From: Candidatus Omnitrophota bacterium
GTDB taxonomy: Bacteria > Omnitrophota > Gorgyraeia > JABMRG01
Assembly: GCA_043823785.1 (NCBI GenBank)
Contig: JBDRAM010000026.1
Span: 1-47,104 of the forward strand
Length of the DNA stretch: 47,104 bases
Direction of reading: 5' to 3'
Part shown: positions 4,765 to 43,542 of the stretch, in pieces
How the letters are laid out: each line of letters starts with the position of its first letter
How positions within the stretch are numbered: position 1 is the first letter of the stretch
Notes under the pieces: generated by a model
The model's input: the letters and a program-made list of their open reading frames with translations, nothing else
The model's database searches: none
What the model was told of the DNA's origin: nothing
Translations under genes and position numbers: made by a program

Positions 4765-4840
4765 CTGATTACAGTGATTATTTCAGATTACAGAGATTAA
4801 AACTTTAATCGCTGTAATCTTTTTTAATCTTGTTAATCAG
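4765..4840. repeat. inverted pair of degenerate 9-bp tandem arrays (GATTA-core arm / TAATC-core arm), no gene between
   Basis: ctgattacagtgattatttcagattacagagatta ... taatcgctgtaatcttttttaatcttgttaatcag. Confidence 0.65.
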
Positions 4841-4866
4841 ATGCCCCCTCTTTTTTTGTAGGGCAT

Positions 4867-6423
4867 CTAATGGTAGGTCTTCATCTTACGCTTGCGCCAG
4901 GCTATCTTCACCATAACACAAAGCGTAGTAAATATCGCTATAAGGCCCAATCTCGTACCGAGAACAAAAGGTTTGTTCGCCTCAGAGACCCCCTTCATTA
5001 AAATCGTAGGTATGCCTTGCTGGATAAACCAGAAACCTAAGATAAAAAGCAGAAAAAGTGGCGTAATATATTTTATAATAAATTTGTATATTTTTGGTAT
5101 ACGAAGCATGGCACCGCTATGCATCTCATCCCATGCTTTATCTATGCCAAATACCCAGGCAAAGACTATAGTCTCAACAGTCGCAAAGAGCACAAGGCAG
5201 AATGTCCCGCCCCAGAAATCAAGCTCATCAACTACACCTTTCCCAAGAAAAAATATCGCGGGCTGGCATAGCAAAAATGTAACAATGCCAAAGATCCAGG
5301 CTGCTCTTTTTCTGTTTATATTAAACTCATCTTCTAAAAAAGCTATTGCCGGCTGTGCCAATGATATTGAGGATGTAACGCCCGCTAAAAAAAGCATTGC
5401 GAACCATAAGAAGCCGAATATGGCTCCCGAAGGAATATGCTCTAATATAACAGGCATTGTCACAAAACTTAAATTAAATGCTCCTCCATTTGCTACTTCC
5501 ACAATCCCTATAGGGCCAAAAAACGCGAACGCGGCCGGTATTATGATAGAAGCGCCGAGTATTACTTCGGCAAATTCATTGGTACTTGCGGCTGAAAGCC
5601 CTGAGAGCGCAACATCATCTGACTTTCTAAGATAGCTTGCGTAGGTAAGAATTACACCTATACCGACGCTTAGCGTAAAAAACATCTGCCCTGCCGCGGC
5701 AAGCCAGACCTTTGCGCTCTTCAAGGCTGAAAAATCAGGATTCCATAAAAATCCAAGCCCGTTCAACGCGTTCCATGCGGGCTTAGCTGCATCCGGAGCG
5801 CCCATAGTCAGGACTCTTAACATTATAATAAACGCGAATATAAAAAGCGCGGGCATTGCAAACTTGCATAGCCTTTCTATGCCGCCTCTTATGCCGTAAT
5901 AGACAACGACTACGTTTAATATAAATGTGATTGTAAAGAAAAGGTATGCTGCCCGCAACCCGCTGAAATGCTCATTCTGCTTTAAACCTTGAAAACCTTG
6001 GAGAAAATCGACCATGCCTGCCTGGGTAGCAGCGCCTTTGTATTTACCCATTATCGAGAATACGCTGTAGGCAAGGCACCATGATTCGATATACGTGTAG
6101 TAGATAAAAATGATCATGGGACCGAAGATACCGATAACACCGAAATACTTTATGAAGCGGCTCTTCTGCCACATGCTGTGGAAAATGCCAGGAGCTGTGG
6201 AGTGCTCAAAACCGCCTCCAAATCTTCCCGCGGTCCACTCTATCCACATTAGAGGAATACCAAGAAGCAGAAATGATATAAAATAAGGTATCATAAAAGC
6301 ACCGCCGCCGTTTTGCGCTGCCTGCACAGGAAACCTCAAAAAATTTCCTAATCCCACAGCGCTTCCGGCTACCGCTAGAACAATACCTAATCTAGAACCC
6401 CATCTTTGTCTCTGCTTAGCCAT
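4867..6423 (-). CDS. sodium-dependent transporter, NSS/SNF (LeuT-like) family
   Basis: RQRWGSRLG...GSAVGLGNFLRFP...NGGGAF motifs; start moved to MAKQR because the longer ORF start lies inside a repeat array. Confidence 0.95.
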   Translation of the reverse strand: MAKQRQRWGSRLGIVLAVAGSAVGLGNFLRFPVQAAQNGGGAFMIPYFISFLLLGIPLMWIEWTAGRFGGGFEHSTAPGIFHSMWQKSRFIKYFGVIGIFGPMIIFIYYTYIESWCLAYSVFSIMGKYKGAATQAGMVDFLQGFQGLKQNEHFSGLRAAYLFFTITFILNVVVVYYGIRGGIERLCKFAMPALFIFAFIIMLRVLTMGAPDAAKPAWNALNGLGFLWNPDFSALKSAKVWLAAAGQMFFTLSVGIGVILTYASYLRKSDDVALSGLSAASTNEFAEVILGASIIIPAAFAFFGPIGIVEVANGGAFNLSFVTMPVILEHIPSGAIFGFLWFAMLFLAGVTSSISLAQPAIAFLEDEFNINRKRAAWIFGIVTFLLCQPAIFFLGKGVVDELDFWGGTFCLVLFATVETIVFAWVFGIDKAWDEMHSGAMLRIPKIYKFIIKYITPLFLLFILGFWFIQQGIPTILMKGVSEANKPFVLGTRLGLIAIFTTLCVMVKIAWRKRKMKTYH

Positions 6424-6427
6424 TGCT

Positions 6428-6494
6428 TCGTCGTTCGTATGTCGTATTTCGTATGTCGAAAATTGCGACATGCGATATGCTATATACGATATAC
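6428..6494. repeat. inverted pair of 7-bp tandem arrays (CGTATGT type), no gene between
   Basis: tcgtatgtcgtatttcgtatgtcg ... cgacatgcgatatgctatatacgatatac. Confidence 0.8.
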
Positions 6495-6498
6495 AAAA

Positions 6499-7254
6499 TT
6501 AATACCTAACTCTCACAAGGCTCAGGCCTTTCGCAGGAGCTGTAGGCCCAGCCTGCGTCCTATCTTTAGCGCGCAGTATCCTTTTCATGCTTCCTGAGTG
6601 AAGCTTGCCCCTTCCTATCTCGATAAGCGTACCGACTATATTCCTGACCATATTATATAGAAAACCGTTTGCCTCAATATCTATATTTATGATAGGGCCG
6701 TCTTTTCTTATGGATATCCTTCTTATATTTCTTACAGACATCCTCTCTTTTTTGTCTGCTGCCTGAAAAGACTTAAAATCTTTCCTTCCTATCAGTATTC
6801 TTGCCTCACGCGTCATAAGCCTTACATCAAGCTTATAAGAAACGTGATATTGATAAAGCCTGTCAAAGGCCATAGAATAATCGCGGTTTAATATCTGATA
6901 GCGGTAGGTTTTAGAGCGGGCATCATACCTGGAGTTAAAATCAGGCTTTACTTCTTCAATATCTACAATAACTATATCTTTAGGCAAGAGCGCGTTAAGA
7001 GCTCTCTGCATAACAGCCATTGGCATCTTTGACTTTGTCTTAAAATTTGCCACCTGGCCCAAGGCATGCACGCCTGAGTCAGTCCTTCCTGCCCCGATAA
7101 TCCTTATCTCATCCTGCAGGATACCGCTTAAGACTCTTTCGATAACGCCCTGTATGGTCTTTTCAATGCCTATCTCATCAGGCTTTTTCTGCTGTATCTG
7201 CCAGCCTTTATAGTTTGTGCCGTCATATTCTATCGTTATCTTTATATTTCTCAT
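6499..7254 (-). CDS. truA: tRNA pseudouridine(38-40) synthase
   Basis: YDGTNYKGWQ, GAGRTDSGVHA, GFLYNMVRNIVG, AGPTAPAKGL. Confidence 0.97.
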   Translation of the reverse strand: MRNIKITIEYDGTNYKGWQIQQKKPDEIGIEKTIQGVIERVLSGILQDEIRIIGAGRTDSGVHALGQVANFKTKSKMPMAVMQRALNALLPKDIVIVDIEEVKPDFNSRYDARSKTYRYQILNRDYSMAFDRLYQYHVSYKLDVRLMTREARILIGRKDFKSFQAADKKERMSVRNIRRISIRKDGPIINIDIEANGFLYNMVRNIVGTLIEIGRGKLHSGSMKRILRAKDRTQAGPTAPAKGLSLVRVRY

Positions 7255-7662
7255 TATAGCATATGGCTTAGAGCACAGAGCTTAGAGTTTTGCCCTGAAA
7301 GCTCTTATCCTCTTGGTTAATATTTCAGACCTTTCATATAATCTTTTAAATCTAGATTCGGCCATTAAGTTCCTCTTTTTGCAAACTGCTAAAATAGATA
7401 CAACTTCATACATTGAACGACAAGAATAATTTAAAAAATTTCTAAATTCCTGTCTTGAATCACTACCCGAACCTTCTGCTATATTATTTGGCACCGACAA
7501 ACTAGCCGATCTAAGCTGGGATGCTATATTATATTGTAAATTTTTAGGTAATTCTTCAGCAAACTCGAGTAAATCTGTGCAAAAGTTTATCGCTTCATGC
7601 CAAATATCTAAGGATTCAAATCTATACATGGCAACCCTATGCTCTAGGCCCTATACTCTTAG
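7255..7662 (-). mobile_element. putative cassette: four-helix-bundle gene between inverted TAGAGCT-type 7-bp arrays
   Basis: Arms at 7255-7289 and 7633-7662 are reverse-complementary arrays; the unit fills the whole asd-truA junction. Confidence 0.6.
7282..7629 (-). CDS. four helix bundle protein (23S rRNA IVP / Avd-like superfamily)
   Basis: FESLDIW...SQLRSASLSVPNNIAEG...EFRNFL...S..E family signature. Confidence 0.92.
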   Translation of the reverse strand: MYRFESLDIWHEAINFCTDLLEFAEELPKNLQYNIASQLRSASLSVPNNIAEGSGSDSRQEFRNFLNYSCRSMYEVVSILAVCKKRNLMAESRFKRLYERSEILTKRIRAFRAKL

Positions 7663-8667
7663 CTATTCACTCTTCACTAACAACTCTGCTATCTGCACGG
7701 CATTTAAGGCCGCGCCCTTGCGCAGGTTGTCCGCTACTATCCATAGCCAGAAAGCATTTTTTACAAAAGGGTCCTTACGTATTCTGCCGACATAAACAGA
7801 GTCTTTTCCTTCGGCAAATACCGGTAAAGGATATCTTCCGTTACCGGGATCATCTATAACTTCCGCTCCGGGAGCTTTCTTCAAAAGTTCTCTTAATTTA
7901 TTAACAGATATTCCTTTCTTAGTTTCAATATATACTGCCTGTGAGTGCCCTGTTACCACAGGGACTCTGACACAGGTAGAGGTTATCTTTATTTTGCTGT
8001 CATGAAATATCTTATGAGTCTCTCTTACGGTCTTCCACTCCTCGCTGGTATAAGACTCATCCTGAAATCCACCGATATGAGGAAATACATTAAACGCTAT
8101 TCGCTGGGGCATGGCAGAAGCTGTTACCTCCTTTCCTTCAAGCAGGTCTTTCGTCTGCGCCTTAAGCTCATTTACCGCGCTGCGGCCGGCGCCTGATACT
8201 GCCTGATATGTAGCTGCCACTATGCGCTTTATGCCAAGCTTTTTATGAATGGGCCAGAGAGGTATAAGCATCTGTATAGTACAGCAGTTTGGATTTGCTA
8301 TTATGCCTTTGTGCTTTTTAGCATCCTTTGGGTTGATCTCAGGCACAACCAGAGGCACATCCTTCTCCATCCTGAAATCAGCGCCATTGTCAATCACGAC
8401 CGCGCCTTCTTTTATGGCTGCGGGTGAATAAGTAACAGCCGCGCCCTTCTCACCCTCTGTGCCGGCAAATAGAGCTATATCTATACCCCTGAAAGCCTGG
8501 GCATCTATCTTAAGCACATGGTATCTTATGCTGTCAACGTCTATATCTCTTTCGCTTCTCGCGAATACCTTAAGCTTATCTATAGGAAAATTACGCTGTT
8601 TTAATACGCGCAGCATCTCGATCCCTACCGCGCCAACACCAACCACCGCTACGTTATAACGTTTCAT
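7663..8667 (-). CDS. asd: aspartate-semialdehyde dehydrogenase
   Basis: VPEIN, IIANPNCCT, YQAVSGAG, CVRVPV, DNLRKGAALNAVQIAE; start MKRYN follows a GGAG RBS. Confidence 0.96.
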   Translation of the reverse strand: MKRYNVAVVGVGAVGIEMLRVLKQRNFPIDKLKVFARSERDIDVDSIRYHVLKIDAQAFRGIDIALFAGTEGEKGAAVTYSPAAIKEGAVVIDNGADFRMEKDVPLVVPEINPKDAKKHKGIIANPNCCTIQMLIPLWPIHKKLGIKRIVAATYQAVSGAGRSAVNELKAQTKDLLEGKEVTASAMPQRIAFNVFPHIGGFQDESYTSEEWKTVRETHKIFHDSKIKITSTCVRVPVVTGHSQAVYIETKKGISVNKLRELLKKAPGAEVIDDPGNGRYPLPVFAEGKDSVYVGRIRKDPFVKNAFWLWIVADNLRKGAALNAVQIAELLVKSE

Positions 8668-8690
8668 TGGTAAATACTCCTTTTGCATAA

Positions 8691-8744
8691 TAGAGCTTAG
8701 GGCTAAGAGCTTAGTTAGGGTCCTATGCTCTACGCCCTATGCTA
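8691..8744. repeat. inverted TAGAGCT-type 7-bp arrays, no gene between
   Basis: tagagct tagggct aagagct ... cctatg ctctacg ccctatg cta. Confidence 0.75.
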
Positions 8745-9794: not shown

Positions 9795-9827
9795 TAACTT
9801 CTCCTGGTATAATACGTTAAAAACCCT

Positions 9828-9962
9828 GGTCAGGTAGTAGGGTTAGGGTCAGGATGCCTGTTTAGTGTTTGGGTCAGGTAGTAGGTATGTTCTTGTATTT
9901 TCACCAACTACCTAACCTAACTACTATGCTGGCTTCCTGACCTTTACCTAACAACATGACCT
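9828..9962. repeat. inverted degenerate ~6-bp arrays (GGTCAG/GGTTAG versus CTAACC/CTGACC)
   Basis: ggtcaggtagtagggttagggtcagg ... ctacctaacctaactact ... cctgacctttacctaac. Confidence 0.6.
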
Positions 9963-9969
9963 CTCGTTT

Positions 9970-10461
9970 TCATTTTACCCTATTACTTATATACTTCATC
10001 AAGCCGCCGGCTGTGATGAGCTTTTGCATAAACTCAGGAAACGGCTGTGTATTATACTCATCACCGGTAGTATTATTCATGATCTTGCCTTTAGCTAAAT
10101 CTATTGACAGGTTATCGCCTTCTTTAATTTTTTTAGCTGCCTCTGAGCTTTCTAAAATGGGTAGTCCTATGTTAATCGCGTTCCTGTAAAAGATACGCGC
10201 AAAACTTTCCGCTACAACACAAGAAACCCCGCATACCTTTATAGAAAGAGGCGCATGCTCTCTCGACGAGCCGCAGCCAAAATTTCTTCCGCCTACAATA
10301 ATATCGCCCTTCTTTACCTTTTTAGCGAAAGAGGGGTCCGCATCTTCCATGCAATGCGCACCAAGCACCTTTGGGTCTATGGTATTAAGATAACGTGCCG
10401 GAATTATCTCATCCGTATTTACGTTATCACCAAACTTATATGCTTTACCTTTTAATTTCAT
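9970..10461 (-). CDS. leuD: 3-isopropylmalate dehydratase small subunit
   Basis: GDNVNTDEIIP, NFGCGSSREHA, SFARIFYRNAIN; start moved to MKLKGK. Confidence 0.94.
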   Translation of the reverse strand: MKLKGKAYKFGDNVNTDEIIPARYLNTIDPKVLGAHCMEDADPSFAKKVKKGDIIVGGRNFGCGSSREHAPLSIKVCGVSCVVAESFARIFYRNAINIGLPILESSEAAKKIKEGDNLSIDLAKGKIMNNTTGDEYNTQPFPEFMQKLITAGGLMKYISNRVK

Positions 10462-10482
10462 CCTTTTCACTCTCTCACTCTC

Positions 10483-10543
10483 TAACCAGGTTAAAAATGG
10501 CACTTTTTAACCTGGTTAAAAACATGGGTTTTTAACCAGGTTA
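10483..10543. repeat. three alternating copies of the near-palindrome TAACC(A/T)GGTTA, 25-bp period
   Basis: taaccaggttaaaaa tggcac tttttaacctggttaaaaa catggg tttttaaccaggtta. Confidence 0.75.
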
Positions 10544-11803: not shown

Positions 11804-11806
11804 ATT

Positions 11807-12233
11807 CGTATTGCGTATTGAGTATTGCGTATTGCGTGTTAAAGTTTTTTAATAAGGTTAAAAACCATCCTTGAAATATGGTCTATTCTTTCTAGTATTT
11901 CTTGCTCTTCAGATTCTTTTAAGTATAATAAATTTTTAGCAATTGTAGCTTGTGTTTCGAGTTCTGCGCAACTTCCTAATGAAATATATAAAAAATGCCT
12001 GTATTCCTTGTTATGACGTCTTCTAAAGCCTTCTGCAACATTAGATGGAACTGATACAGATGCTCTTCTCATTTGACTACTTAATCCGTATATTTCAGTA
12101 TTTGGAAATTGATTAGTTAGCATATAAATTCTACTAACCAACTCAATAGACTTTTTCCAGATATCTAAATCTCTATATGTCTTTATTTTTCCATTCATCT
12201 TTACGCAATACACACGACGCACGACGCAATACG
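11807..12233 (-). mobile_element. putative cassette: four-helix-bundle gene between inverted GTATTGC-type 7-bp arrays
   Basis: Left arm 11807-11839, right arm 12202-12233; the same arms occur without a gene at 16180-16245 and 21570-21642. Confidence 0.7.
11839..12198 (-). CDS. four helix bundle protein (23S rRNA IVP / Avd-like superfamily)
   Basis: TYRDLDIW...FPNTEIYGLSSQMRRASVSVPSNVAEG...SLGSCAELETQ; start MNGKIK. Confidence 0.95.
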   Translation of the reverse strand: MNGKIKTYRDLDIWKKSIELVSRIYMLTNQFPNTEIYGLSSQMRRASVSVPSNVAEGFRRRHNKEYRHFLYISLGSCAELETQATIAKNLLYLKESEEQEILERIDHISRMVFNLIKKL

Positions 12234-12243
12234 AATTTCAATT

Positions 12244-12702
12244 TCACAGCCTAAGCATCATGGCCTGTTCATCGCAATTCGGGAACTTATGGCACTTAAG
12301 GCACTCTGTCCATATCTTATGCGGAAGTTTCTTTCTCGAAATATTCTTAAAACCAAACTTCCTAAAAAACTTTGGTACATATGTAAGGCAGAATACCTTC
12401 TTTGCCTTAAGCGCTTTGGCTTCTTTGAGCGCGGCATTTACCAACTTTCTGCCTATGCCTTTCTTAGCTTCTTTCTCATCTACTGCCAATGCCTTTATCT
12501 CCGCTAAGTCTTCCCAGCATACATGCAATGCGCAGCAGCCAAGTATCTTACTCCCTTTTGAAACAATAAAATAGTCCCTTATATTCTCATAGATCTCAAT
12601 AAGGGAGCGGGATAGCATGGCATCCTTTTTTGCATACCCAGCTATCATGCTTTGTATCTTCTTAGCATCCTTTATGTCTGCTTTCCTTAAAACTATGTTC
12701 AT
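12244..12702 (-). CDS. GNAT acetyltransferase, short ArgA-like N-acetylglutamate synthase
   Basis: IYENIRDY, WEDLAEIKALAV, LPHKIWTECLKCHKFPNCDE. Confidence 0.85.
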   Translation of the reverse strand: MNIVLRKADIKDAKKIQSMIAGYAKKDAMLSRSLIEIYENIRDYFIVSKGSKILGCCALHVCWEDLAEIKALAVDEKEAKKGIGRKLVNAALKEAKALKAKKVFCLTYVPKFFRKFGFKNISRKKLPHKIWTECLKCHKFPNCDEQAMMLRL

Positions 12703-12728
12703 AGTATTCTCCTAATATATGAGTAAGT

Positions 12729-12757
12729 ATTATATAATATATGGTGAGAGTTTGCAA
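12729..12757 (-). promoter_or_regulatory. sigma70 promoter TTGCAA-17-TATAAT for the argA-leu-asd-truA operon
   Basis: -35 at 12752-12757, -10 at 12729-12734. Confidence 0.55.
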
Positions 12758-12787
12758 GAAAATTGCTTTAGGTAACATCAGATATGG

Positions 12788-13432: not shown

Positions 13433-13435
13433 AGT

Positions 13436-13461
13436 TTCGCCGCCAGGAGGCGGCTCCTACG
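13436..13461 (-). repeat. GTAG-type REP-like element
   Basis: cGTAGGAGCCGCCTCCTGGCGGCGAA; identical 26-bp copy at 31577-31602. Confidence 0.7.
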
Positions 13462-13474
13462 TTTAGCTATCCAC

Positions 13475-13508
13475 AATAGTAGGGCACGTTTAAACGTGCC
13501 CTACTATT
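13475..13508. repeat. perfect 34-bp palindrome, GTAGGG...CCCTAC REP-like
   Basis: aatagtagggcacgttt|aaacgtgccctactatt. Confidence 0.75.
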
Positions 13509-13510
13509 AG

Positions 13511-16170: not shown

Positions 16171-16179
16171 AATACTGTC

Positions 16180-16255
16180 CGTATTGCGTATTGAGTATTG
16201 CGTATTGCGTGTAGTCGCGATACGCAATACGCACGACGCACGACGAGGCCTACGC
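16180..16255. repeat. inverted GTATTGC-type arrays, no gene between
   Basis: The 33-bp left arm is identical to 11807-11839. Confidence 0.85.
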
Positions 16256-19218: not shown

Positions 19219-19287
19219 GTATATCGTATGTCGCATTTCGTATATCGCGAAAACCGATATGCGATATGCTATATACGACATGCGAAA
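19219..19287. repeat. inverted CGTATGT/CGTATAT 7-bp arrays, no gene between
   Basis: Shares 20 identical bp (19259-19278) with 6470-6489. Confidence 0.8.
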
Positions 19288-21543: not shown

Positions 21544-21569
21544 CCTTACTCCTCCTTGTTCTTATAGTC

Positions 21570-21642
21570 CGTATTGAGTATTGAGTATTGAGTATTGAGT
21601 TGAAAGTTTTTTTCGCAATACGCACGACGCACTACGCAATAC
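21570..21642. repeat. inverted GTATTGA/GCAATAC arrays with a 12-bp spacer resembling the 3' end of the four-helix-bundle gene
   Basis: Right arm is 27/29 identical to 12204-12232; spacer tgaaagtttttt versus ttaaagtttttt at 11839. Confidence 0.8.
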
Positions 21643-22652
21643 TATACGTTAATTTTGGGTTCTCTTAAATATCTACTGGCGGTCTCAGGCGGTGTAGGAT
21701 TAATATAGAATCCTGTCCCCCACTCAAAGCCTGCGATCTTACTAAGCTTCGGCATAATCTCTACATGCCAATGGTAGTACTCACTTTCATCACCATTGCC
21801 GTTGAGAGGGGTGGTATGTATGATAAAATTATAAGGCGGGTCCTTCAGAGCAACCTTCATCCTCATGAGTATCTCTTTGAGTATCTTTGCAAAATTATTT
21901 ATTTCTGATTCTGTAATATCCGTAAAATAGGCTGCATGCTTTCTCGGCACTATTGATACCTCAAAAGGTGAGCGCGAAGCAAACGGGCAGAATGCTATAA
22001 AATCATCATTCTCCAATATCTCCCTGTGCCTGTATTCCAACTCCTGTCTTACGATATCGCAAAAAACGCAGCGTTCTTTATAATCGTAATAGCGATGAGC
22101 GCACTCCATCTCTTCCATAACGCGCCTTGGCACTACTGGTAAAGATATAAGCTGTGTGTGGCTATGCTCCAAAGAGGCGCCTGCAGCTAGGCCATAATTT
22201 TTAAAGATCAATACATACTTAAACCTATCGTCCTTCGCAAGCTCCAGGCTTCTTCTCTTATATACTCTAATAACCTTCTTTATCTGCTCAATATCAAGGT
22301 CAGCAAGCTGCTCATCATGCTTGACACCTTCTACAATTACCTCGTGCTCGCCTACCCCGTTCATCATATCGAACATCCCGACGCCTGTGCGATTGAGGTC
22401 TGGTTCGTTCTTTAACGCAGGAAACTTATTAGGAACTGTTCTTGTCTCCCAGCCCGGCGTATCAGCAGCAGTGCCATCCGGACGGTCTGCATCAACTTCA
22501 GGCGGAGTCAGCTTTTCACTACCAATGCAGAAAGGACATGTTCCACCCATAAGAACCGGACTTTCTATAATGTAGCCGTCGGGCCCAAGATTCTTTTCAC
22601 TGCTTATAATGACCCAGCGTGCGGTCATAGGATCAAGTCTTAATTCACCCAT
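21642..22652 (-). CDS. galT: GalT-like hexose-1-phosphate nucleotidyltransferase (HIT superfamily)
   Basis: CPFC, NKFPAL, GASLEHSHTQL (intact HxHxQ), HWHVEIMP, AGFEWGTG. Confidence 0.85.
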   Translation of the reverse strand: MGELRLDPMTARWVIISSEKNLGPDGYIIESPVLMGGTCPFCIGSEKLTPPEVDADRPDGTAADTPGWETRTVPNKFPALKNEPDLNRTGVGMFDMMNGVGEHEVIVEGVKHDEQLADLDIEQIKKVIRVYKRRSLELAKDDRFKYVLIFKNYGLAAGASLEHSHTQLISLPVVPRRVMEEMECAHRYYDYKERCVFCDIVRQELEYRHREILENDDFIAFCPFASRSPFEVSIVPRKHAAYFTDITESEINNFAKILKEILMRMKVALKDPPYNFIIHTTPLNGNGDESEYYHWHVEIMPKLSKIAGFEWGTGFYINPTPPETASRYLREPKINV

Positions 22653-22658: not shown

Positions 22659-22690
22659 CGTCCTGCGTCCTGCGTCCTGCGTATTGCGTA
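22659..22690. repeat. solo 7-bp array (CGTCCTG x3 plus CGTATTG)
   Basis: cgtcctgcgtcctgcgtcctgcgtattgcgta. Confidence 0.7.
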
Positions 22691-23748: not shown

Positions 23749-23872
23749 AGTTTAGTTCACAGTTAATAGTTTACAGTTCACAGTTAATAGTTGATAGTTT
23801 CAGCCGCATGCTCCGTAGGCGCATCTGCCTGCGGCAGAGGCTGACCAGCCTTTGGCTGGTATAGTTTATAGT
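23749..23872. repeat. solo 7-bp array (A(T/C)AGTTN) interrupted by GC-rich hairpins
   Basis: agtttagttcacagttaatagtttacagttcacagttaatagttgatagttt...ccagcctttggctgg atagtttatagtt. Confidence 0.6.
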
Positions 23873-37025: not shown

Positions 37026-37062
37026 ATGTTAAAAATAAACCCTACAGCCTAGGACATAGGCC

Positions 37063-37767: not shown

Positions 37768-37867
37768 CCCGTACGACTCCTAGGAAATATGTATTTTGCA
37801 GTTAAATATTTTATATGTTATACTTTATATCCCGCTAAACTCTGTTTGGTTAGGAGTCGTACGGGGT
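37766..37867. repeat. 17-bp perfect inverted repeat covering the udg RBS and the 3' end of the upstream gene
   Basis: accccgtacgactccta (37766-37782) / taggagtcgtacggggt (37851-37867). Confidence 0.75.
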
Positions 37868-38994: not shown

Positions 38995-39002
38995 ATGATT
39001 TA

Positions 39003-39083
39003 CTCCAGCTCTAGGTTCCAGGCTCTAAGGCATAGGGATTTTAACTCTAATCCCTGCAACCTACGGCCTAGGACCTACAACCT
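39003..39083. repeat. degenerate inverted 7-bp arrays (TAGG / CCTA cores) overlapping a gene 3' end
   Basis: ctaggtt ccaggct ctaaggc ataggga ... tccctgc aacctac ggcctag gacctac. Confidence 0.55.
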
Positions 39084-39945
39084 CTCTGACCCTCCGTATA
39101 TGTTGCGGCGTAGTGCCGCAGCAGCCACCGATAATATTTGCACCTGCCTCAATAAGCTCAGGAATATATTTAGCAAATTCATCGGGAGACTCATCATAAA
39201 CAGCCTTTCCGTCAACAAGTTTAGGCATACCGGCATTTGGCTGAGCTATTAAAAACGCTGTACTTAAAGTGCGCAATTCAGCTATCAGGCCTATAATGTC
39301 CGCTATTGTAAGGTTACAGTTTGTGCCTATAACGTCGCAACCCGCCAAAAGCGCTTCATTCACAAATTGAGGTATGCTGACACCCGATGTAGTCCTAAAG
39401 CCTTTTCCTTGAGTCTTCTGAAATGTCATACTAGCGATAAGCGGAAGTTTCGTATTCCCCTTTACCGCCATTATAGCTTGTTTTAATTCCTCCATATCCG
39501 ACATGGTCTCTAATATAATAGCGTCTACCCCGGCTTCATTCAACACTACTACCTGCTCCGCGAAACATTCAAGCATTTGAGCAGGCTCAATATTGCCAAC
39601 AGGCTTCATATATTCACCTGTAGGCCCGATATCACCCAAAACATACGCCTTATCACCTGCGGACTCCTTTGCGGCCTCGACAGCTATCTTATTTATAGAC
39701 TGGGCCTTTTTTTCAATATTATATTTTTTCAGTTTTATGCTGTTGGCGCCAAAGGTATTGGTCGTTATCATATCAGCGCCCGCATCAATGTAGGATTTAT
39801 ATATGGAGGCCATAACTTTTTTATTCTTAGCGCCCCAGTCATCCGGAGAAGCTCCTTCAGGCATGCCGCTTGACATAAGTATGGTGCCTATCGCCCCGTC
39901 ACAGACTAGCCTCTCTTCCTTCAACCGCTCTATCAGATCCTTCAT
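39061..39945 (-). CDS. homocysteine S-methyltransferase domain protein (stand-alone MetH N-terminal module)
   Basis: DGAIGT, TTNTFGAN, GTNC, PNAGMP, GGCCGTTP. Confidence 0.9.
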   Translation of the reverse strand: MKDLIERLKEERLVCDGAIGTILMSSGMPEGASPDDWGAKNKKVMASIYKSYIDAGADMITTNTFGANSIKLKKYNIEKKAQSINKIAVEAAKESAGDKAYVLGDIGPTGEYMKPVGNIEPAQMLECFAEQVVVLNEAGVDAIILETMSDMEELKQAIMAVKGNTKLPLIASMTFQKTQGKGFRTTSGVSIPQFVNEALLAGCDVIGTNCNLTIADIIGLIAELRTLSTAFLIAQPNAGMPKLVDGKAVYDESPDEFAKYIPELIEAGANIIGGCCGTTPQHIRRVREVVGPRP

Positions 39946-39967
39946 CGCAAACCTCGTACTTTATGAT

Positions 39968-40186
39968 GTTACGTAGGTTACGGAGGTTACGGAGGTTACG
40001 AAAGTTACATTTTTCAAAAAGGTACTCCGTAACATTCGTAACATTCGTAACATTCGTAACATTCGTAACATTCGTAACATTTGTAACATTTGTAACATTC
40101 GTAACATTCGTAACATTCGTAACATTCGTAACCTCCGTAACCTCCGTAACATTCGTAACATTTGTAACATTTATAACATTTATAAC
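39968..40186. repeat. inverted 9-bp tandem arrays: 5x GTTACGGAG-type versus 18x GTAACATTC-type
   Basis: Units counted directly; spacer about 20 bp. Confidence 0.9.
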
Positions 40187-40203
40187 TTTATTTTTATTAT
40201 ACC

Positions 40204-40764
40204 CTATATACTGTTCTTCAATATAACATCTTTTACTGCACATAAAAGATCTCTGCAGGTATAATCAGGTTGCGTTTGCCAGAGCTTCATGTCTTTCCTG
40301 TTATAATAACCGGAAAGCACCGCTATGGTCCTTACCCCATAGCTTTTCCCCGCAGCAACATCCCTCTCTGTGTCACCTATAAAAAATGAGTTCTTCTTAT
40401 CTATCCTAGACTTGCCAACCGCTTTTTTAATAAGCCCTGCTTTAGGTTTTCTGCAGGCACAGCCGGCATCGGGATGATGCAGGCAATAGAAAGCCTTTCT
40501 TATCTTTCCGCCTTTAGCCTCTATGCCTTTAATCATCTTTTCAGTTATTCCTTTAAGGTCATCCCTAGAAAAGAGGCCCTTTGCTACCCCAGCCTGATTC
40601 GATGTGACCACTATATCAAATCCTGCTTCCGTAAGCATCTTTACCGCCTCCGTAACGCCCGGCAAAAGTTTAAACTCCGCTGCCTTCTTTATGTAATCAT
40701 ATCGAATGGGATTCTTATTAATGACTCCATCTCTGTCTAAAAATATCATTCGCTTTCGCTTCAT
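40204..40764 (-). CDS. gmhB: D-glycero-D-manno-heptose 1,7-bisphosphate phosphatase
   Basis: FLDRDGVIN, SNQAG, CLHHP..CACRKP, IGD. Confidence 0.88.
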   Translation of the reverse strand: MKRKRMIFLDRDGVINKNPIRYDYIKKAAEFKLLPGVTEAVKMLTEAGFDIVVTSNQAGVAKGLFSRDDLKGITEKMIKGIEAKGGKIRKAFYCLHHPDAGCACRKPKAGLIKKAVGKSRIDKKNSFFIGDTERDVAAGKSYGVRTIAVLSGYYNRKDMKLWQTQPDYTCRDLLCAVKDVILKNSI

Positions 40765-40771
40765 CGTTCTC

Positions 40772-40929
40772 CTCTATAGAAACTTTTGTGTGCTCGGCAC
40801 TGAAATTTTTTGCAATCTTGCAAGCTGCGGGTATTGTTCGCAAAACTATTATTTTCGCCTCTCCCTTGAACTCAGGGCGAAAAAAATAAAGTTTTGCTTT
40901 ACACAATACCCGCAGCTTGCTTCTCTATA
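40772..40929. repeat. long stem-loop element bounded by 7-bp direct repeats (CTCTATA)
   Basis: 18-bp perfect stem 40820-40837/40903-40920 with further pairing inside; direct repeats at 40772-40778 and 40923-40929. Confidence 0.55.
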
Positions 40930-40937
40930 AAATTCAT

Positions 40938-41366
40938 TTACCGCACATCCCATTTTTTGTTAGTCCAATAGAATAATCCTTTTATCTTAGCAACTAATTG
41001 CCATTTTTTAATTAATGGTATGTTAATAACTGAATATTTATAACTTATCTCATATGCTACTGCGTTATCTTCTGGTATTTTTGGTACTTGTACTCCGCAT
41101 TGATAAATGCGACCTACCATAAATATATCTTTCTCAAATAAGGGTTTTTGCGGATTATTAACCTCTGGCTGGAATATATCATATTTCAAATCAAAAGCTG
41201 GTGCATTACCTATGTTTTTTAACTCTGTGGAAATATATCTGGTATGTGAAAAATCTTTATCGATTGAAATCACAATATTAGGTCTTACTAAAAACGATAT
41301 CACTAAGACAATAAGCGGAACAAAAACTATTAAGAAATTTTTTATTAGTCTAAAGAAACATTTCAT
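40938..41366 (-). CDS. hypothetical membrane-anchored protein (AT-rich)
   Basis: 142-aa ORF, N-terminal TM segment, AGGA RBS. Confidence 0.65.
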   Translation of the reverse strand: MKCFFRLIKNFLIVFVPLIVLVISFLVRPNIVISIDKDFSHTRYISTELKNIGNAPAFDLKYDIFQPEVNNPQKPLFEKDIFMVGRIYQCGVQVPKIPEDNAVAYEISYKYSVINIPLIKKWQLVAKIKGLFYWTNKKWDVR

Positions 41367-41382
41367 ATTTAATCCTAATTAA

Positions 41383-41620
41383 CAAATAACGTTGTCGCGT
41401 AACAAAGCCACTTGTAAAGAGCTTTTGGGGCCAACCGGAGCAAAACCTTTTCCTGCTTGGCCGGAACCCAATTCAGAGCAGGATGTCCGAAAATTTGAGC
41501 GGGCACGGTTTCCGCCGAAGGCGGAAGAGCGAAAATTTTCGCCAAGCGAGCAAAGCCTCGCTGGGGCTTTGCGAGCGGTCCTGCGAGAATTGGGTTTCGG
41601 GCAAGCAAGAGCCAAATAAC
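41383..41620. repeat. GC-rich long stem-loop element bounded by 8-bp direct repeats (CAAATAAC)
   Basis: 19/21 stem 41454-41474/41587-41607; direct repeats at 41383-41390 and 41613-41620. Confidence 0.6.
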
Positions 41621-42396
41621 TACTGCTCAAGCTTGTCTCTTACGAGCTCCCAATACTTTACCCACTTAATAAAATGAACCCACGCGAATAAAACTGAGAA
41701 TATAAATCCGTATACGCCTTCCTTGAAGCCCTGCTTCTTTACATAGAATTTCCAGAAGAGCTTTACCGGCTTTATCTTTATGTTATAAAGTATCTCTTTT
41801 CTGTCCAGGACCCCTTTTAATTCAAGTATCTCCTTCGACTCGATGTCCGTATAACGGTTTTGTTTTGTAACAAACTGTGAAAAATTATCAAAAGGGTAGT
41901 GTTCTATCTCGGCATCCAGGCTGCCTATCTCGCCGTTAACAATAAGCTCATGATGGACCTTGCCCTGGTACAGGGCGAAGCCTTTTTTAAAAAGATGAAG
42001 AGAGCGGTGATACCACCCACCGTATCTCATGAAATGGCCCATAAAGAAATTCTTGCGCCAGAACTTATAAGCCGCAAACCTATCTTCCTTTTGGAGTATC
42101 TTCACCATTTCATTTTTAAAACCCTCTGTTACCACGTCATCGCCGTCAAGCTGCAGTATCCAGTCTCCTGATGAGTTGTCTATACCAATGTTTCTCTCCT
42201 GGCCAAAATCTCCTCCGAATTCGTGCTGGACGATCCTTGCGTTGTATTCTCTACATATCTCTACCGTCTTATCGGTACTAAAACCATCCACAACAACTAT
42301 CTCATCGGCCCATCTAATACTCTCAAGGCAATCTCTAACCTTATCTTCTATGTTTTTCGTAAGTATAACAGCTGATAATCTCTTGCGGGTATCCAT
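41620..42396 (-). CDS. GT2 glycosyltransferase (LPS core beta-glucosyltransferase-like)
   Basis: ILTKN, VVDGFSTDKT, QRN, WILQLDGDD. Confidence 0.9.
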   Translation of the reverse strand: MDTRKRLSAVILTKNIEDKVRDCLESIRWADEIVVVDGFSTDKTVEICREYNARIVQHEFGGDFGQERNIGIDNSSGDWILQLDGDDVVTEGFKNEMVKILQKEDRFAAYKFWRKNFFMGHFMRYGGWYHRSLHLFKKGFALYQGKVHHELIVNGEIGSLDAEIEHYPFDNFSQFVTKQNRYTDIESKEILELKGVLDRKEILYNIKIKPVKLFWKFYVKKQGFKEGVYGFIFSVLFAWVHFIKWVKYWELVRDKLEQ

Positions 42397-42411
42397 TCCT
42401 TACCTCTCTTA

Positions 42412-43542
42412 TTATAGAATCGACCTTTTCACCGCTTCTACTACTGTCTGTGCAGAAATCTTATTCAGGCAGTCTCTGTGTCCGCATTCAGGTATCTTAA
42501 AATTACGGTAACACGGCCTGCAGCTTAAACTATCATTTCTTATTACAATATGTTTTTCACTAACCGGATACGGGCCATAGACTTTATCATCAACAGGCCC
42601 GAATATTGAAACCGTATCAGTGCCTAAAGCAGCCGCTATATGCAAAGGGCCTCCGTCATTTGCTATAAGCATCCTTGCCTTATCAATAATACCGGCCGAT
42701 GTCAAAAGGTCTGTCTCCCCGCAAAGGTCTATACACCTTGCTTCTTTCTCTTTTATATACCCACACATCTGTTTATCTTCCCCGCTGCCTATCAACACCA
42801 CCTTTAGGTTCAGCTCGCCGCACAGAACCTTTGCTATTTCCAGGAAATTCTCCTTTGGCCATTGCTTGCGAAAAGATGTACCGCCCCAGCTCAAGCCCCC
42901 GCCCGGTGCCATGCATACAAATCCTTCATCATCAGCTATGCCTTTTATTAGCAATAGGTCGCGGGCATTGCGCCTGCTTTTCTCCGGTATGTAGATATGC
43001 ATACAGAGGCCTTCCGGTGATTCTATGCCCGCAAGCGCCATAAGTGATATATAGTATTCAGCCATGTGCTTATCATGGTATCCATCAAGATCTATCTTGT
43101 TAGTTAAAAATATCCCTCTTTTTTTATAATTATATCCGATTCTTTTCTTTATGCCTGCCAATTTCAGGAAAAGGCCAAATTCCCGGGCAAGGGAAAGATC
43201 AAATACAGTATCAAATTTCTCATCTCTTGCTTCTCTCAAAAGGCGATAAAGCTTAAGAAGGCACCTATACTTTGAGATCTTCCAGAGGTGCCTGTACTCA
43301 TCCTTCTCAAATATAAAGCACTTATTTACATTGGGGTCGGATAGAATAAAGGGAGCTGTCCTTATATTGCATATATAACCTATATAAGCATTGGGATATT
43401 GCTTTCTTATAGCCCCTATAATAGGTGTGGTAAAAAGCACATCACCGATACCGAAGGGGTTGACAATGAGTATTCTTGGGGATAGTATGTCGTATGTCGT
43501 ATGTCGTATGTCGCTCAACACAGAACTCTCTATTTTTTCCAT
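42412..43542 (-). CDS. GT9 heptosyltransferase-like protein
   Basis: GIGDVLFTTP, APGG, KQWP, NDGGPLHIAAA. Confidence 0.9.
   Translation of the reverse strand: MEKIESSVLSDIRHTTYDILSPRILIVNPFGIGDVLFTTPIIGAIRKQYPNAYIGYICNIRTAPFILSDPNVNKCFIFEKDEYRHLWKISKYRCLLKLYRLLREARDEKFDTVFDLSLAREFGLFLKLAGIKKRIGYNYKKRGIFLTNKIDLDGYHDKHMAEYYISLMALAGIESPEGLCMHIYIPEKSRRNARDLLLIKGIADDEGFVCMAPGGGLSWGGTSFRKQWPKENFLEIAKVLCGELNLKVVLIGSGEDKQMCGYIKEKEARCIDLCGETDLLTSAGIIDKARMLIANDGGPLHIAAALGTDTVSIFGPVDDKVYGPYPVSEKHIVIRNDSLSCRPCYRNFKIPECGHRDCLNKISAQTVVEAVKRSIL
43485..43513. repeat. solo CGTATGT-type 7-bp array (about 4 units) inside the GT9 N-terminus
   Basis: gtatgtcgtatgtcgtatgtcgtatgtcg, encoding DIRHTTYDI. Confidence 0.75.

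Follow-up and report, generated by a model that had tools for sequence, protein, structure and literature searches.

The window analysed here, a stretch of 47,104 nucleotides from a Candidatus Omnitrophota genome (contig JBDRAM010000026.1), holds 41 crude gene calls, all on the minus strand. Tandem Repeats Finder and a junction-by-junction listing with folds placed short-unit arrays at or beside every gene-junction coordinate at which the first-pass annotation had reported them. It had also claimed that two pairs of arms each enclose a single four-helix-bundle gene in the orientation of the operon. This was borne out: the window contains two cassettes, at 7255-7662 and 11804-12243, in each of which a PF05635/TIGR02436 gene, co-oriented with its flanks, lies between two arms of about 30 nt built from tandem 7-nt units, the 3' arm being the reverse complement of the 5' arm. 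The gene order is N-acetyltransferase-IVP-leuC for cassette 1 and asd-IVP-truA for cassette 2.

12199..12243, minus strand: cassette 1, 5' arm, GTATTGC/GTCGTGC-type units of 7 nt in tandem
11839..12198, minus strand: IVP1, four-helix-bundle gene, 119 aa from the ATG at 12198
11804..11838, minus strand: 3' arm of cassette 1, about five GCAATAC units, reverse complement of the 5' arm
7630..7662, minus strand: 5' arm of cassette 2, TAGAGCA/TAGGGYY-type units
7282..7629, minus strand: IVP2, four-helix-bundle gene, 115 aa
7255..7281, minus strand: 3' arm of cassette 2, abutting the truA start codon (7254)

IVP1 scores 134 bits against PF05635 and 127.5 bits against TIGR02436, with PDB 2GSC (XCC0516) as a structural homologue (E 1.8e-26); the corresponding scores of IVP2 are 94 and 88.7 bits. 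In cassette 1 the stop codon that ends the N-acetyltransferase gene (12244-12702) is followed after 6-8 nt by the 5' arm, and the 3' arm abuts the leuC start codon (11803); in cassette 2 the 5' arm directly follows the asd stop codon (7663-7665). In whole-cassette minimum free energy (MFE) folds the two arms are joined by 33 long-range pairs in cassette 1 and by 23 in cassette 2.

The remaining arrays have no gene between arms. Most arrays had been described as two-armed, with reverse-complementary arms; this holds for the two cassettes, for eight gene-less hairpins and, weakly, for one more, and fails for four single arrays.

4735..4838, minus strand: double hairpin without a gene, GATTA-core units
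6426..6498, minus strand: hairpin without a gene at the junction of truA and a transporter gene, CGTATAT/ACATACG-family units
8694..8743, minus strand: hairpin without a gene at the leuB/asd junction, MFE -26.7 kcal/mol
9828..9961, minus strand: long hairpin without a gene at the leuD/leuB junction, GGTYAGG-type units, MFE about -60 kcal/mol
16179..16246, minus strand: hairpin without a gene, one arm identical to the 3' arm of cassette 1 (100% over 33 nt)
19221..19281, minus strand: hairpin without a gene, heptamer units, MFE -28.8 kcal/mol
21571..21647, minus strand: hairpin without a gene, 5' arm similar to that of cassette 1 (93% over 29 nt)
39966..40180, minus strand: asymmetric hairpin without a gene, 9-nt units, about 17 versus about 4.6 copies
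38995..39060, minus strand: weak partial hairpin, AGGG/TAGAGC-type units
22659..22689, minus strand: single array of 7-nt units, partner arm not found
23753..23800, minus strand: AACTRTK-type units in a single array that closely precedes a start codon, partner arm not found
37026..37062, minus strand: single short arm, GT-rich TAGGSYY-type units, partner not found
43485..43513, minus strand: single perfect array, 4.1 copies, partner not found

The 9-nt unit of the hairpin at 39966..40180 has no match among the resident cassettes. Since the array at 43485..43513 lies inside the 5' end of an ORF call (42412-43542), the true start codon of that ORF is probably further downstream.

All six PF05635 genes of the genome have arms. 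An arm score of at least 28 is reached at 23 of 30 loci from relatives and, overall, at 74 of 106, a set that spans relatives and many other phyla. Among the cross-phylum loci the count is 51 of 77. Of 144 control ORFs not adjacent to the gene, 7 reach the score; three of these seven are themselves further PF05635 genes, and setting them aside leaves 4 of 141. Thirty-two of the 106 loci fall below the threshold, 14 of them with no array on either side. Arrays occur upstream at 77, downstream at 79 and on both sides at 68 of the 106 loci, so that 156 of 212 real gene flanks carry one, compared with 5 of 212 shuffled flanks. A period of 7 predominates (48 upstream and 52 downstream arrays), followed by 8 (16 and 15) and 9 (4 and 4), and the period is equal on the two sides at 56 of 68 loci. 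The median copy number is 4.4, and the sequence of the unit varies among loci, with period (7, then 8) and copy number conserved. Copies of the gene on cyanobacterial plasmids likewise have heptamer arms on their flanks. These results bear out the suspected co-occurrence of PF05635/TIGR02436 genes with inverted tandem arrays, and confirm that arm-gene-arm units are real and more general than the window alone could show.

Cassettes occupy the space separating one gene's stop codon from the start codon of the co-directional gene that follows, and the geometry originally proposed, with the stop beside the 5' arm and the start beside the 3' arm, recurs: the median distance is 2 nt from the upstream stop codon to the 5' arm and 10 nt from the 3' arm to the downstream start codon. 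The neighbouring gene is co-oriented upstream at 63 of 72 loci and downstream at 55 of 69. Arm-arm pairs close the whole-cassette MFE fold in 71 of 74 cassettes, a closure that follows by construction from the complementarity of the arms. On the sense strand the 5' arm is G/T-rich and C-poor, and its units are enriched in stop codons (43/70, with 33.4 expected) and depleted in ATG (5/70, with 13.1 expected).

Comparison among loci shows that the arms belong to the gene and accompany it into unrelated contexts, genomes and phyla: the same or similar units go with proteins of 53-78% identity in non-homologous flanks (L003/L019/L031, L014/L029, L063/L079, L025/L036 and L002/L044). Orthologous junctions, when aligned across relatives, present filled, empty-hairpin and plain states, which shows gain, loss and exchange of the cassette at individual junctions within groups of close relatives. 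At the argA-leuC junction the genes of G000 and its counterpart G003 are 57% identical and their arms differ, with flanks 73-79% identical. The leuD-leuB junction holds a cassette in the relative G003 and a gene-less hairpin in the window; at asd-truA the states are reversed, and the G003 hairpin there nearly equals the arms of that genome's own argA-leuC cassette. The closest relatives have spacers of 0-20 nt at orthologous housekeeping-operon junctions. A Flavobacterium junction carries a cassette in 17 of 30 species, falling into five cassette clusters; cassette-protein identity is uncorrelated with flank identity (rho 0.16), and filled and empty alleles swap the entire spacer rather than differing by a simple insertion. 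The earlier suggestion of a mobile unit is supported by all of this: arm-gene-arm is a discrete unit that moves and turns over. No target-site duplication was seen, and the reported lack of a linked transposase, integrase or reverse transcriptase stands: none was found in ten window ORFs scanned against Pfam, and RVT_1 has no match in the whole genome. The cassette itself encodes no mobility enzyme, and we know of none that serves it.

Genome-wide there are 333 merged period-7 arrays, with 70% of their bases outside crude ORF calls compared with 10.6% of the genome. Loop lengths are bimodal, one group being no longer than about 120 nt and the other lying near 400 nt, and 63 gene-less hairpins have short loops. 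At least four 7-mers are shared with resident cassette arms in 38 of the 63, which can be assigned to four of the six resident genes; the other 25, chiefly of 9-nt families, match no resident cassette. Identical arm copies of 31-37 nt exist among the hairpins, and the 3' arm of cassette 1 has such gene-less copies (100% identical, 31-37 nt) at no fewer than six other loci of the genome. The kinship claimed between empty copies and cassettes is upheld by these near-identical arms, and on this comparison the cassettes have gene-less arm-loop-arm derivatives with the same arms, which have multiplied within the genome. Of 60 scorable hairpins 59 lie between co-directional genes, which is only a mild enrichment over the 90.5% of all neighbouring gene pairs in the genome that share a direction. 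Across 13 genomes, which are related, hairpin density follows gene count loosely (rho 0.54, p 0.056).

Several readings of these units were weighed. Under the classical intervening sequence (IVS) function the stem would exist for cutting by RNase III, yielding a monocistronic mRNA and a split operon transcript, with processing as its purpose. Stems of about 30 bp, such as the arms would form, are suitable RNase III substrates. Excision by this enzyme at a terminal stem has been shown for rRNA IVSs. Among them is the Coxiella element, in which a 28-bp stem is cut and tandem heptamers precede the S23p start codon (passages of PMC4990558). However, a search of this genome (87% complete) found neither of the RNase III domains PF14622 and PF00636, and a relative's RNase III-like ORF gave a best tblastn E of 0.2 there. 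The enzyme was likewise not found in 28 of the 31 class genomes searched; PF00636 occurs in only three, two of which are without a PF05635 gene, and yet the cassettes of the lineage keep their arms. This makes rRNA-like excision unlikely here, and processing as the purpose of the stem the least probable of the readings, one to which we give very little credence. 

Two independent phenomena could instead coincide, with polymerase slippage and palindrome-driven template switching making the arrays at junctions, and the genes merely tolerated or preferentially inserted there. Heptamer repeats are indeed reported to be over-represented in many bacterial genomes, with inverted pairs but no linked gene noted in Xanthomonas (passages of PMC4692102) and intergenic TAACTGA repeats elsewhere (passages of PMC4679880), and some sampled genomes free of the gene have arrays, such as G013 with 15 per 100 kb and no inverted pairs. 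We nevertheless regard coincidence as very unlikely: arms are specific to the gene against the control ORFs, move with it into new contexts and phyla, and conserve period and copy number across phyla on both sides of it. Four genomes with few or no gene-less hairpins (G008, G017, G022 and G023) still have arms flanking the gene, and the present data point to arms being equally frequent where other heptamer arrays are lacking. Somewhat more can be said for host regulation, according to which the ring protein would be a trans-acting RNA- or DNA-binding regulator acting, in the manner of TRAP, on tandem heptamers at operon junctions and controlling processing, coupling or stability; each paralogue would have as its regulon the hairpins bearing its unit, and its own arms as an autoregulatory site. 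The assignment of several unit families to particular resident genes, the narrow copy number of 4-5 units set against a pentameric homologue, the position of hairpins between stop and start codons and the codon-level constraints in arm units would all suit this. Against it, orthologous housekeeping junctions gain and lose cassettes and hairpins, and the closest relatives do well there with short spacers; cassette types are exchanged irrespective of flanks; a search of 31 genomes of the class found no PF05635 gene in 13; the 25 unmatched hairpins have no resident gene; and the further sites of the cassette, between tRNA genes and inside cas operons, together with the presence of the gene in rRNA, form a pattern typical of selfish elements. 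Host regulation is thus possible but unlikely.

The explanation we favour, and consider probable, is a mobile, compact, promoter-less IVS-like cassette with gene-less derivatives; the window cassettes are best read as belonging with the ORF-bearing 23S rRNA IVS to one kind of element, sited here between protein-coding genes. A cassette is built from a 5' arm (4-5 tandem units of 7 nt, more rarely 8 or 9 nt), a gene of about 115-120 aa and a reverse-complement 3' arm. In the host transcript, in single-stranded DNA or in both, the arms would form a stem of about 30 bp that loops out the cassette. The spacing of the host stop and start codons would then stay near 10 nt, the value at junctions without an insertion, so that the insertion might do almost no harm. 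Where a host has RNase III, this stem may, by analogy with rRNA IVSs, serve as an excision site. Against pairing in RNA, mismatches between cassette arms are G.U and A.C in equal number (66 and 66), which fits copying at the DNA level, or neutral change, better than it fits selection for paired RNA. In the gene-less hairpins of the genome the antisense strand folds better in 41 of 59, and sense-strand A.C mismatches exceed G.U (115 versus 45). Also counting against the explanation are the negative RNase III searches, the lack of a known mobility enzyme or a visible target-site duplication, the whole-spacer replacement at the Flavobacterium junction, the 25 hairpins unmatched by a resident cassette, the loose relation of hairpin density to gene count and the 32 loci below the arm threshold. 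Slippage in the arrays and copying between arms would keep the arms complementary as the unit sequence drifts. Templated repeat synthesis, which had been suggested at the outset, is without support, and slippage, the other suggestion, gains it indirectly from copy-number differences between orthologous arms and between Coxiella strains (passages of PMC4990558). The solved homologue of the PF05635/TIGR02436 protein, XCC0516, is a pentameric ring, and the ring probably recognises the tandem units of its own arms (4-5 units for five subunits) and probably helps the element to spread or to be maintained. We found no paper linking the PF05635 gene to heptamer repeats.

The cassette shares traits with several known systems. 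MITEs and REP/BIME elements are short, palindromic, mainly intergenic and multi-copy, with ends common to a rarer gene-bearing version, and REPs occur inside operons; here too, as in MITE/transposon and REP/RAYT pairs, many short palindromic copies share ends with a gene-bearing cassette. That cassette, however, is without a transposase or a visible target-site duplication, and its ends are tandem arrays that differ by family; the four Y1-transposase-like genes of the genome are flanked by other, non-tandem GC-rich palindromes. Integron cassettes are promoter-less single-gene units, inserted co-directionally and served by a host promoter, whose imperfect inverted repeat folds as a single-stranded DNA hairpin. 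The cassette resembles them in this, with a hairpin in single-stranded DNA as a possibility, but an integron has one 3' attC, an integrase and attI, whereas we find two arms, sites scattered over housekeeping operons and, among the ten window ORFs scanned, no integrase. Avd, the accessory protein of diversity-generating retroelements (DGRs), binds nucleic acid and a partner enzyme and has a distantly related four-helix-bundle fold. Matches to bAvd and Avd are nevertheless weak and below cut-off (27.3 bits against 40 and 22.7 against 80), the protein scores as PF05635, a reverse transcriptase was not found in the genome, and template and variable repeats are absent. TRAP-type rings are alike in manner of working only, as a homo-oligomeric ring with a tandem array whose copy number approximates the number of subunits (a pentamer and 4-5 units here); the fold is unrelated and array binding by the four-helix-bundle protein is putative.

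The closest parallels are the 23S rRNA IVS and the intergenic heptamer repeats, among which the STRR are those of heterocystous cyanobacteria. The IVSs of Leptospira, Coxiella and others encode the same protein family, with the ORF inside a long inverted-repeat terminal stem; the Coxiella IVS has tandem heptamers just upstream of the ORF in strain-variable copy number, and insertion into a transcribed host RNA likewise keeps the host parts together (passages of PMC4990558). The same source carries an old hypothesis that the IVS is a mobile element with an ORF for mobility. Here, by contrast, the host is a polycistronic mRNA or a tRNA cluster and not an rRNA helix, and the searches of the lineage found no RNase III. 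The passages of PMC4990558 do not describe two arms that are both built from tandem units, a period and copy number conserved across phyla, or gene-less derivatives. The heptamer-repeat papers, in the passages searched, describe tandem 7-nt units, often within operons and variable in copy number among relatives, as G-quadruplex formers or translational signals, and make no mention of S23, four-helix or intervening-sequence genes (PMC4692102, PMC4679880). They include 70-75 convergent (inverted) pairs of GGGAATC in Xanthomonas (PMC4692102) and TAACTGA repeats in Beggiatoaceae, cyanobacteria and Bacteroidetes (PMC4679880); Xanthomonas, TAACTGA and STRR units differ in sequence from those of the window. 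The heptamers of one rRNA IVS and the inverted pairs of Xanthomonas are already in print, separately, and the element proposed here would tie rRNA intervening sequences to the excess of 7-base repeats in bacterial genomes.

All 41 gene calls in the window, which are crude, lie on the minus strand, and Tandem Repeats Finder recovers short-unit arrays at the places where the first-pass annotation had described arrays, most of them two-armed, at gene junctions. That observation is borne out: read in gene sense there are ten two-armed places, two around a four-helix-bundle gene and eight arm-loop-arm hairpins that enclose no gene. They are listed here with one weak two-armed place and four single arrays, taken from the junction listing and folds, and with the non-tandem elements of other junctions.

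Repeat elements and cassette genes of the window
4735-4838 (start and end approximate), minus strand: gene-less hairpin, reverse-complementary arms
6426-6498, minus strand: gene-less hairpin, reverse-complementary arms
7282-7629, minus strand: IVP2, PF05635/TIGR02436 four-helix-bundle protein (cassette 2, 7255-7662)
8694-8743, minus strand: gene-less hairpin, reverse-complementary arms
9828-9961, minus strand: gene-less hairpin of 134 nt at the leuD-leuB junction, reverse-complementary arms
11839-12198, minus strand: IVP1, PF05635/TIGR02436 four-helix-bundle protein (cassette 1, 11804-12243)
16179-16246, minus strand: gene-less hairpin, reverse-complementary arms
19221-19281, minus strand: gene-less hairpin, reverse-complementary arms
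21571-21647, minus strand: gene-less hairpin, reverse-complementary arms
38995-39060, minus strand: weak two-armed place
39966-40180, minus strand: gene-less hairpin with a long 9-nt array, reverse-complementary arms
22659, 23753, 37026 and 43485, minus strand: single arrays, one arm each
10504-10540, 13433-13510, 40765-40937, 41367-41619 and 45801-45896: non-tandem junction elements

The non-tandem elements are GC-rich, REP-like palindromes and large self-folding structures (MFE -43 to -94 kcal/mol), with which a 16-bp stem between leuC and leuD is counted; REP types of the window junctions also flank Y1 transposase-like genes elsewhere in the source genome. Two ORF calls, 39899-40243 and 42412-43542, overrun the 9-nt array (39966-40180) and a heptamer array (43485-43513), and such arrays may make gene callers misplace starts or invent ORFs. 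A DUF6788 gene (729-1091) and the gene for a 1080-aa protein with a helix-turn-helix domain as its sole Pfam match (1227-4469) bear no relation to the cassettes.

PF05635/TIGR02436 is, to our knowledge, a very common family of unknown function, and its solved structures are two decades old. Over the whole protein IVP1 scores 134.4 bits against PF05635 and 127.5 bits against TIGR02436, and IVP2 94.1 and 88.7 bits (cut-offs 33.8 and 24, respectively). IVP1 is homologous to the solved protein XCC0516 (phmmer E 1.8e-26), whose PDB entry, 2GSC, holds five chains and which is cited as a pentamer in an excerpt of PMC4990558. The two genes sit among housekeeping neighbours in the order N-acetyltransferase - IVP1 - leuC - leuD - leuB - asd - IVP2 - truA. 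The predicted stem of cassette 1 starts 6-8 nt past the upstream TGA stop and ends immediately ahead of the leuC ATG, and whole-cassette folds contain 33 long-range arm-arm pairs in cassette 1 and 23 in cassette 2. An Rfam search of the window returned no family of any kind, rRNA included; the ten other window ORFs scanned showed no sign of a transposase, an integrase or a reverse transcriptase, and neither IVP1 nor IVP2 matched any family of the PADLOC anti-phage defence models.

The source genome (1.9 Mb in 139 contigs, 87% complete) contains 1109 merged tandem arrays, with period 7 (333 arrays) far above the neighbouring periods; crude ORF calls leave out 70% of the period-7 bases, compared with 10.6% of the genome. 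The first-pass annotation had called for a genome-wide scan for arrays and family matches as a check of their co-occurrence, and the two do go together: inverted arms of tandem 7- or 8-nt units bracket all six PF05635 genes. Where other genes of this genome have complementary flanks, the arrangement is hairpin-gene-hairpin, a REP pair or an IS, and not arm-gene-arm. Within the class the gene is present in 17 of 30 relatives (18/31 with the source genome), and 23 of the 30 class loci returned, two of them from the source genome itself, attain a local arm-complementarity score of at least 28, which was set as the arm threshold. The best 80 of 596 relatives that a scan across phyla, one genome per species, brought up include Planctomycetota, Nitrospira, Bacteroidota (among them cultured Flavobacterium and Sphingobacterium), Firmicutes, Collinsella, Acidobacteriota, Desulfobacterota, candidate phyla and others. 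After removal of four loci at a contig end or with runs of N from a set of 110, the threshold was reached by 74 of 106. Among the cross-phylum loci it was reached by 51/77, compared with 7/144 non-adjoining ORFs of the same loci (Mann-Whitney p 2e-21); three of the seven scoring control ORFs are further PF05635 genes, so the corrected contrast is 51/77 to 4/141. These results define the anatomy of the gene in a family that ranges from Bacteroidota and cyanobacteria to candidate phyla: it sits in a cassette whose arms keep a 7-nt period.

It is the form of the arms that is conserved and not their sequence. Nearly every one of the 106 loci has a different unit, the only common core being a modest enrichment of GT, TA and AG, and yet tandem arrays are found upstream of the gene at 77 loci, downstream at 79 and on both sides at 68, whereas shuffling the flanks (106 loci, two sides) left an array in only 5/212. 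Period 7 accounts for 48 upstream and 52 downstream arrays, period 8 for 16 and 15, and period 9 for 4 and 4, and the two sides agree in period at 56 of the 68 loci; the median copy number is 4.4 (interquartile range approximately 3.7-5.3), giving around 31 nt per arm. Read in sense, the 5' arm is rich in G and T and poor in C (T 801, G 696, A 628, C 272). Its units contain a stop codon in 43 of 70 cases (33.4 expected; 6 of 2000 shuffles reach 43) and an ATG in only five (13.1 expected), and this excess and shortage together suggest that the arms of the sense transcript are exposed to ribosomes. One idea is that a unit length not divisible by three would present a single stop triplet in all three frames; stops close all three frames in only 28 of 74 5' arms.

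The genes next to the 74 good loci are mostly co-oriented with the cassette (upstream 63/72, downstream 55/69), and the fit between them is close, with a median of 2 nt from the upstream stop codon to the 5' arm and of 10 nt from the 3' arm to the next start codon. The cassette's own gene starts a median of 22 nt past the aligned part of the 5' arm. Cassette-free relatives have spacers of 0-20 nt at the same junctions, so that a closed stem would bring back the native spacing. Whole-cassette folds close arm to arm at 71 of 74 loci, a figure that follows from complementarity and is no independent evidence.

Cassettes also occur between tRNA-Val and tRNA-Asp genes (L015, in relative G025) and, with GGTGACA and CTGTCAC arms, between cas6 and cas4 on plasmid pANA02 of Anabaena sp. 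90 (L232). Excerpts of earlier work describe family genes in 16S and 23S rRNA gene insertions of candidate phyla (bioRxiv 10.1101/2024.02.27.582315) and a survey that found 18 family genes within cas loci and suspected a nuclease link (PMC3936711). Presence in cas loci had been taken as a possible Cas-associated function; the cas6-cas4 and tRNA cassettes suggest that the association is incidental, and annotators who infer function by guilt-by-association will be misled here. Copies of the gene on plasmids occur chiefly in Nostoc, Calothrix and Anabaena, and two of four inspected have clear heptamer arms. At two loci of Nostoc sp. PCC 7120 with the same protein accession (L230 on plasmid gamma and L231 on plasmid alpha) the downstream heptamer array is kept and the upstream arm is absent; a transposase gene lies upstream of both, directly adjacent in L230, and the cassette was probably cut by an IS.

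The first-pass annotation had regarded the gene-less hairpins as empty copies of the cassette, and their kinship with it is confirmed by near-identical arm copies in two genomes. In the source genome the 3' arm of IVP1 recurs without a gene at six or more loci, each time with 100% identity across 31-37 nt, and 38 of the 63 short-loop hairpins with tandem arms have at least four 7-mers in common with a resident cassette's arms, four such cassettes being involved; the remaining 25 belong mainly to 9-nt families. In relative G003 the arms of the argA-leuC cassette are repeated almost exactly, as far as their outer ends, in the hairpin at the asd-truA junction. The hairpin is to the cassette what a MITE is to an autonomous element; hairpins may have arisen by loss of the ORF, or cassettes by its gain. 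Loop lengths are bimodal: 56 arrays of the source genome have a complementary partner within 800 nt, which in 48 lies within approximately 120 nt, three are cassettes at around 400 nt, and the long 9-nt array at 39968, together with hairpin-gene-hairpin arrangements, makes up the other five. Nothing among the 56 looks like a decaying form intermediate between the two loop lengths. The loop at 21544-21641 looked by eye like the last codons of IVP1. In a systematic search nearly all matches listed reach no more than 2 nt into the ORF part, the exceptions being two weak matches to cassette 3' ends (C34:11384-11447 and C67:14053-14091) that extend 13 and 19 nt into it and may be remnants of lost genes.

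Of the 60 scorable hairpins in the source genome, 59 lie between co-directional genes, just mildly above the background of 90.5%. In these 59 A.C mismatches on the sense strand outnumber G.U (115 to 45) and the antisense strand folds better in 41, a bias that cassette arms across phyla lack; it may be inherited and not selected, since copies of one family are not independent. When approximately 71-100 kb from each of 12 relatives was added to the comparison, inverted pairs were found in three of seven genomes with the gene (those with 6-7 copies) and in one of six without it, and gene count and hairpin density showed a weak trend (rho 0.54, p 0.056) across these 13 mutually related genomes.

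Presence/absence variation at orthologous junctions, which had been named as a test of the cassette, is seen both in the operon of the class and in Flavobacterium. Across the class a six-gene synteny is kept while junction states vary: leuD-leuB carries a gene-less hairpin in the window and a cassette in G003, asd-truA is filled in the window and carries a gene-less hairpin in G003, and most other relatives have short plain spacers at both. At argA-leuC the flanks of the window and of G003 are 73-79% identical, whereas identity falls to 57% between the cassette genes, which have different arms. Neither of the filled junctions, argA-leuC and asd-truA, shows a target-site duplication. Three loci of a neighbouring family (L154, L156 and L164, in G013, G012 and G014) share a complex palindrome of approximately 175-210 nt (MFE about -56 to -64 kcal/mol) at the leuB-asd or asd-truA junction, another MITE-like insertion in the same operon.

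In 30 species of Flavobacterium the junction between a PRiA4_ORF3-like gene and an NA37 gene is filled in 17, holds a short hairpin of heptamer-like build in ten and other palindromes in three, and nearest neighbours by flank are often in different states. The 16 near-full-length cassette proteins form five clusters with different arms, and their identity (55-95%) is uncorrelated with that of the flanking gene (rho 0.16); at L240 and L241 the flanks are 94% identical in nucleotides and the cassette proteins 62%. Alleles replace the whole spacer, and orthologous arms differ in unit variants and unit number. We claim turnover here and not repeated insertion: outside the set, the nearest relatives of the cassettes are at further Flavobacterium loci, which may or may not lie at this junction.

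Protein relationship, suggested as something to compare with the repeat unit, goes with it for close proteins alone: arm 6-mers are in common in 24% of pairs at 65% identity or more and in 0.4-4% of more distant pairs. Several arm-sharing pairs lack homologous flanks, namely L003, L019 and L031 (three genomes, 67-76% identity), L014 and L029 (77%), and L063 and L079 (66%, Acidobacteriaceae against Gemmataceae), which indicates that the arms move with the gene.

Beyond the observed anatomy, specificity, conservation, placement and turnover of the cassettes and the kinship of their filled and empty forms, we infer that the arms pair. If RNA pairing were selected, G.U should exceed A.C among arm mismatches, and there is no such excess (66 and 66); of the two duplexes the sense one tends to be the more stable, by a modest margin (68 loci against 37, p 4.6e-4), with the reverse bias in the gene-less hairpins of the source genome. 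The equal mismatch counts argue against a purely RNA-level constraint and fit DNA-level copying between arms, which, with slippage within each array, would keep the arms alike. Excision by RNase III was dropped as the working mechanism in the source genome (87% complete), in which PF14622 and PF00636 gave no match and tblastn with an RNase III-like ORF of a relative gave a best E of 0.2. Of the 31 class genomes searched, three alone gave a PF00636 match (G019, G026 and G030), none of them of the window's family or order, and a bacterial class largely without RNase III would be notable in itself. This favours a loop-out stem that would stay uncut: the cassette would be looped out of the operon mRNA, the stop and start codons on either side would remain neighbours, and the start of the cassette's own gene would lie free in the loop. 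In four RNA runs with low, patchy contig cover, one contig spans the end of asd, the 5' arm and the start of IVP2 (7514-7683), and is uninformative as to strand, ends and processing; apparent joints near 11830-12210 have sides under 30 nt and differing inserted letters, and are attributed to other loci with the same repeats and not to excision.

As to what spreads the arms, a retro-element reading was dropped, as no RVT_1 match and hence no reverse transcriptase was found in the source genome. Y1_Tnp, IS200/RAYT-like, matches at four places there (C35:3588-4328, C39:8127-8729, C135:15965-16300 and C42:65392-65649), but such genes are unsupported as mobilisers: around the two inspected, as around one in L063, the repeats are GC-rich palindromes of non-tandem build and not heptamer arrays. 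The narrow range of four to five units, set beside a pentameric homologue, suggests that the protein may read the units. The fuller proposal would make the four-helix-bundle pentamer read tandem heptamers sequence-specifically, each subunit taking one unit, and drive the spread or upkeep of its own arms; it is a speculative one that we consider unlikely as it stands. Were it true, the element would be a new class of mobile element without a recognisable nuclease, recombinase or polymerase gene, and its gene-bearing and gene-less copies would explain much of the heptamer excess (STRR, GGGAATC pairs, TAACTGA arrays) as well as ORF-bearing rRNA IVSs and the cas-locus association; any role of the protein in mobility or repeat maintenance would be a new mechanism.

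The anatomy itself joins ORF-bearing IVSs in rRNA and the recurrence of the gene in unrelated operons, cas loci included, into one picture that can be tested in cultivable carriers such as Flavobacterium, Nostoc and Bacteroides. It also bears on the source of at least part of the bacterial heptamer-repeat excess. Excerpts of two papers report that heptamers are over-represented, with 70-75 inverted GGGAATC pairs in Xanthomonas read as quadruplex formers (PMC4692102), and that TAACTGA repeats are intergenic in Beggiatoaceae, cyanobacteria and Bacteroidetes (PMC4679880); these excerpts nowhere use S23, four-helix (or four helix) or intervening (sequence). In full-text searches of open-access papers we found no link of the family to flanking tandem-repeat arms beyond the Coxiella IVS.

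Among known systems, REP/RAYT elements have a Y1 (HUH) transposase flanked by the repeats it mobilises, and heptamer arrays were not found so placed at the Y1 genes inspected. Avd, the DGR accessory protein, is encoded near a reverse transcriptase with template and variable repeats; here the scores stay below the cut-offs (22.7 bits against NF033474, cut-off 80; 27.3 against bAvd, cut-off 40), and there is no RVT_1 match in the source genome. Like transposons and their MITEs, the cassettes have terminal inverted repeats common to gene-bearing and gene-less copies, many per genome; unlike them, they show no encoded transposase or target-site duplications, and their sole gene encodes a four-helix bundle of 115-120 aa. 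Both window cassettes have, like the rRNA IVS, inverted repeats at their ends that could pair into a long closing stem. The published precedent, the Coxiella IVS as excerpted from PMC4990558, has a terminal stem of 28 bp that RNase III cuts, and heptamers, strain-variable in number, before the S23p start; it is the only IVS so described, and tandem heptamers between stem and ORF start are present in the window cassettes too. An IVS lies in a 16S or 23S rRNA helix, whereas both cassettes lie between protein-coding genes (asd-truA and N-acetyltransferase-leuC). The reading of arm-gene-arm as a cassette is supported, and with it the view of these cassettes as IVS-type elements in operons, with conserved heptamer arms and gene-less derivatives.
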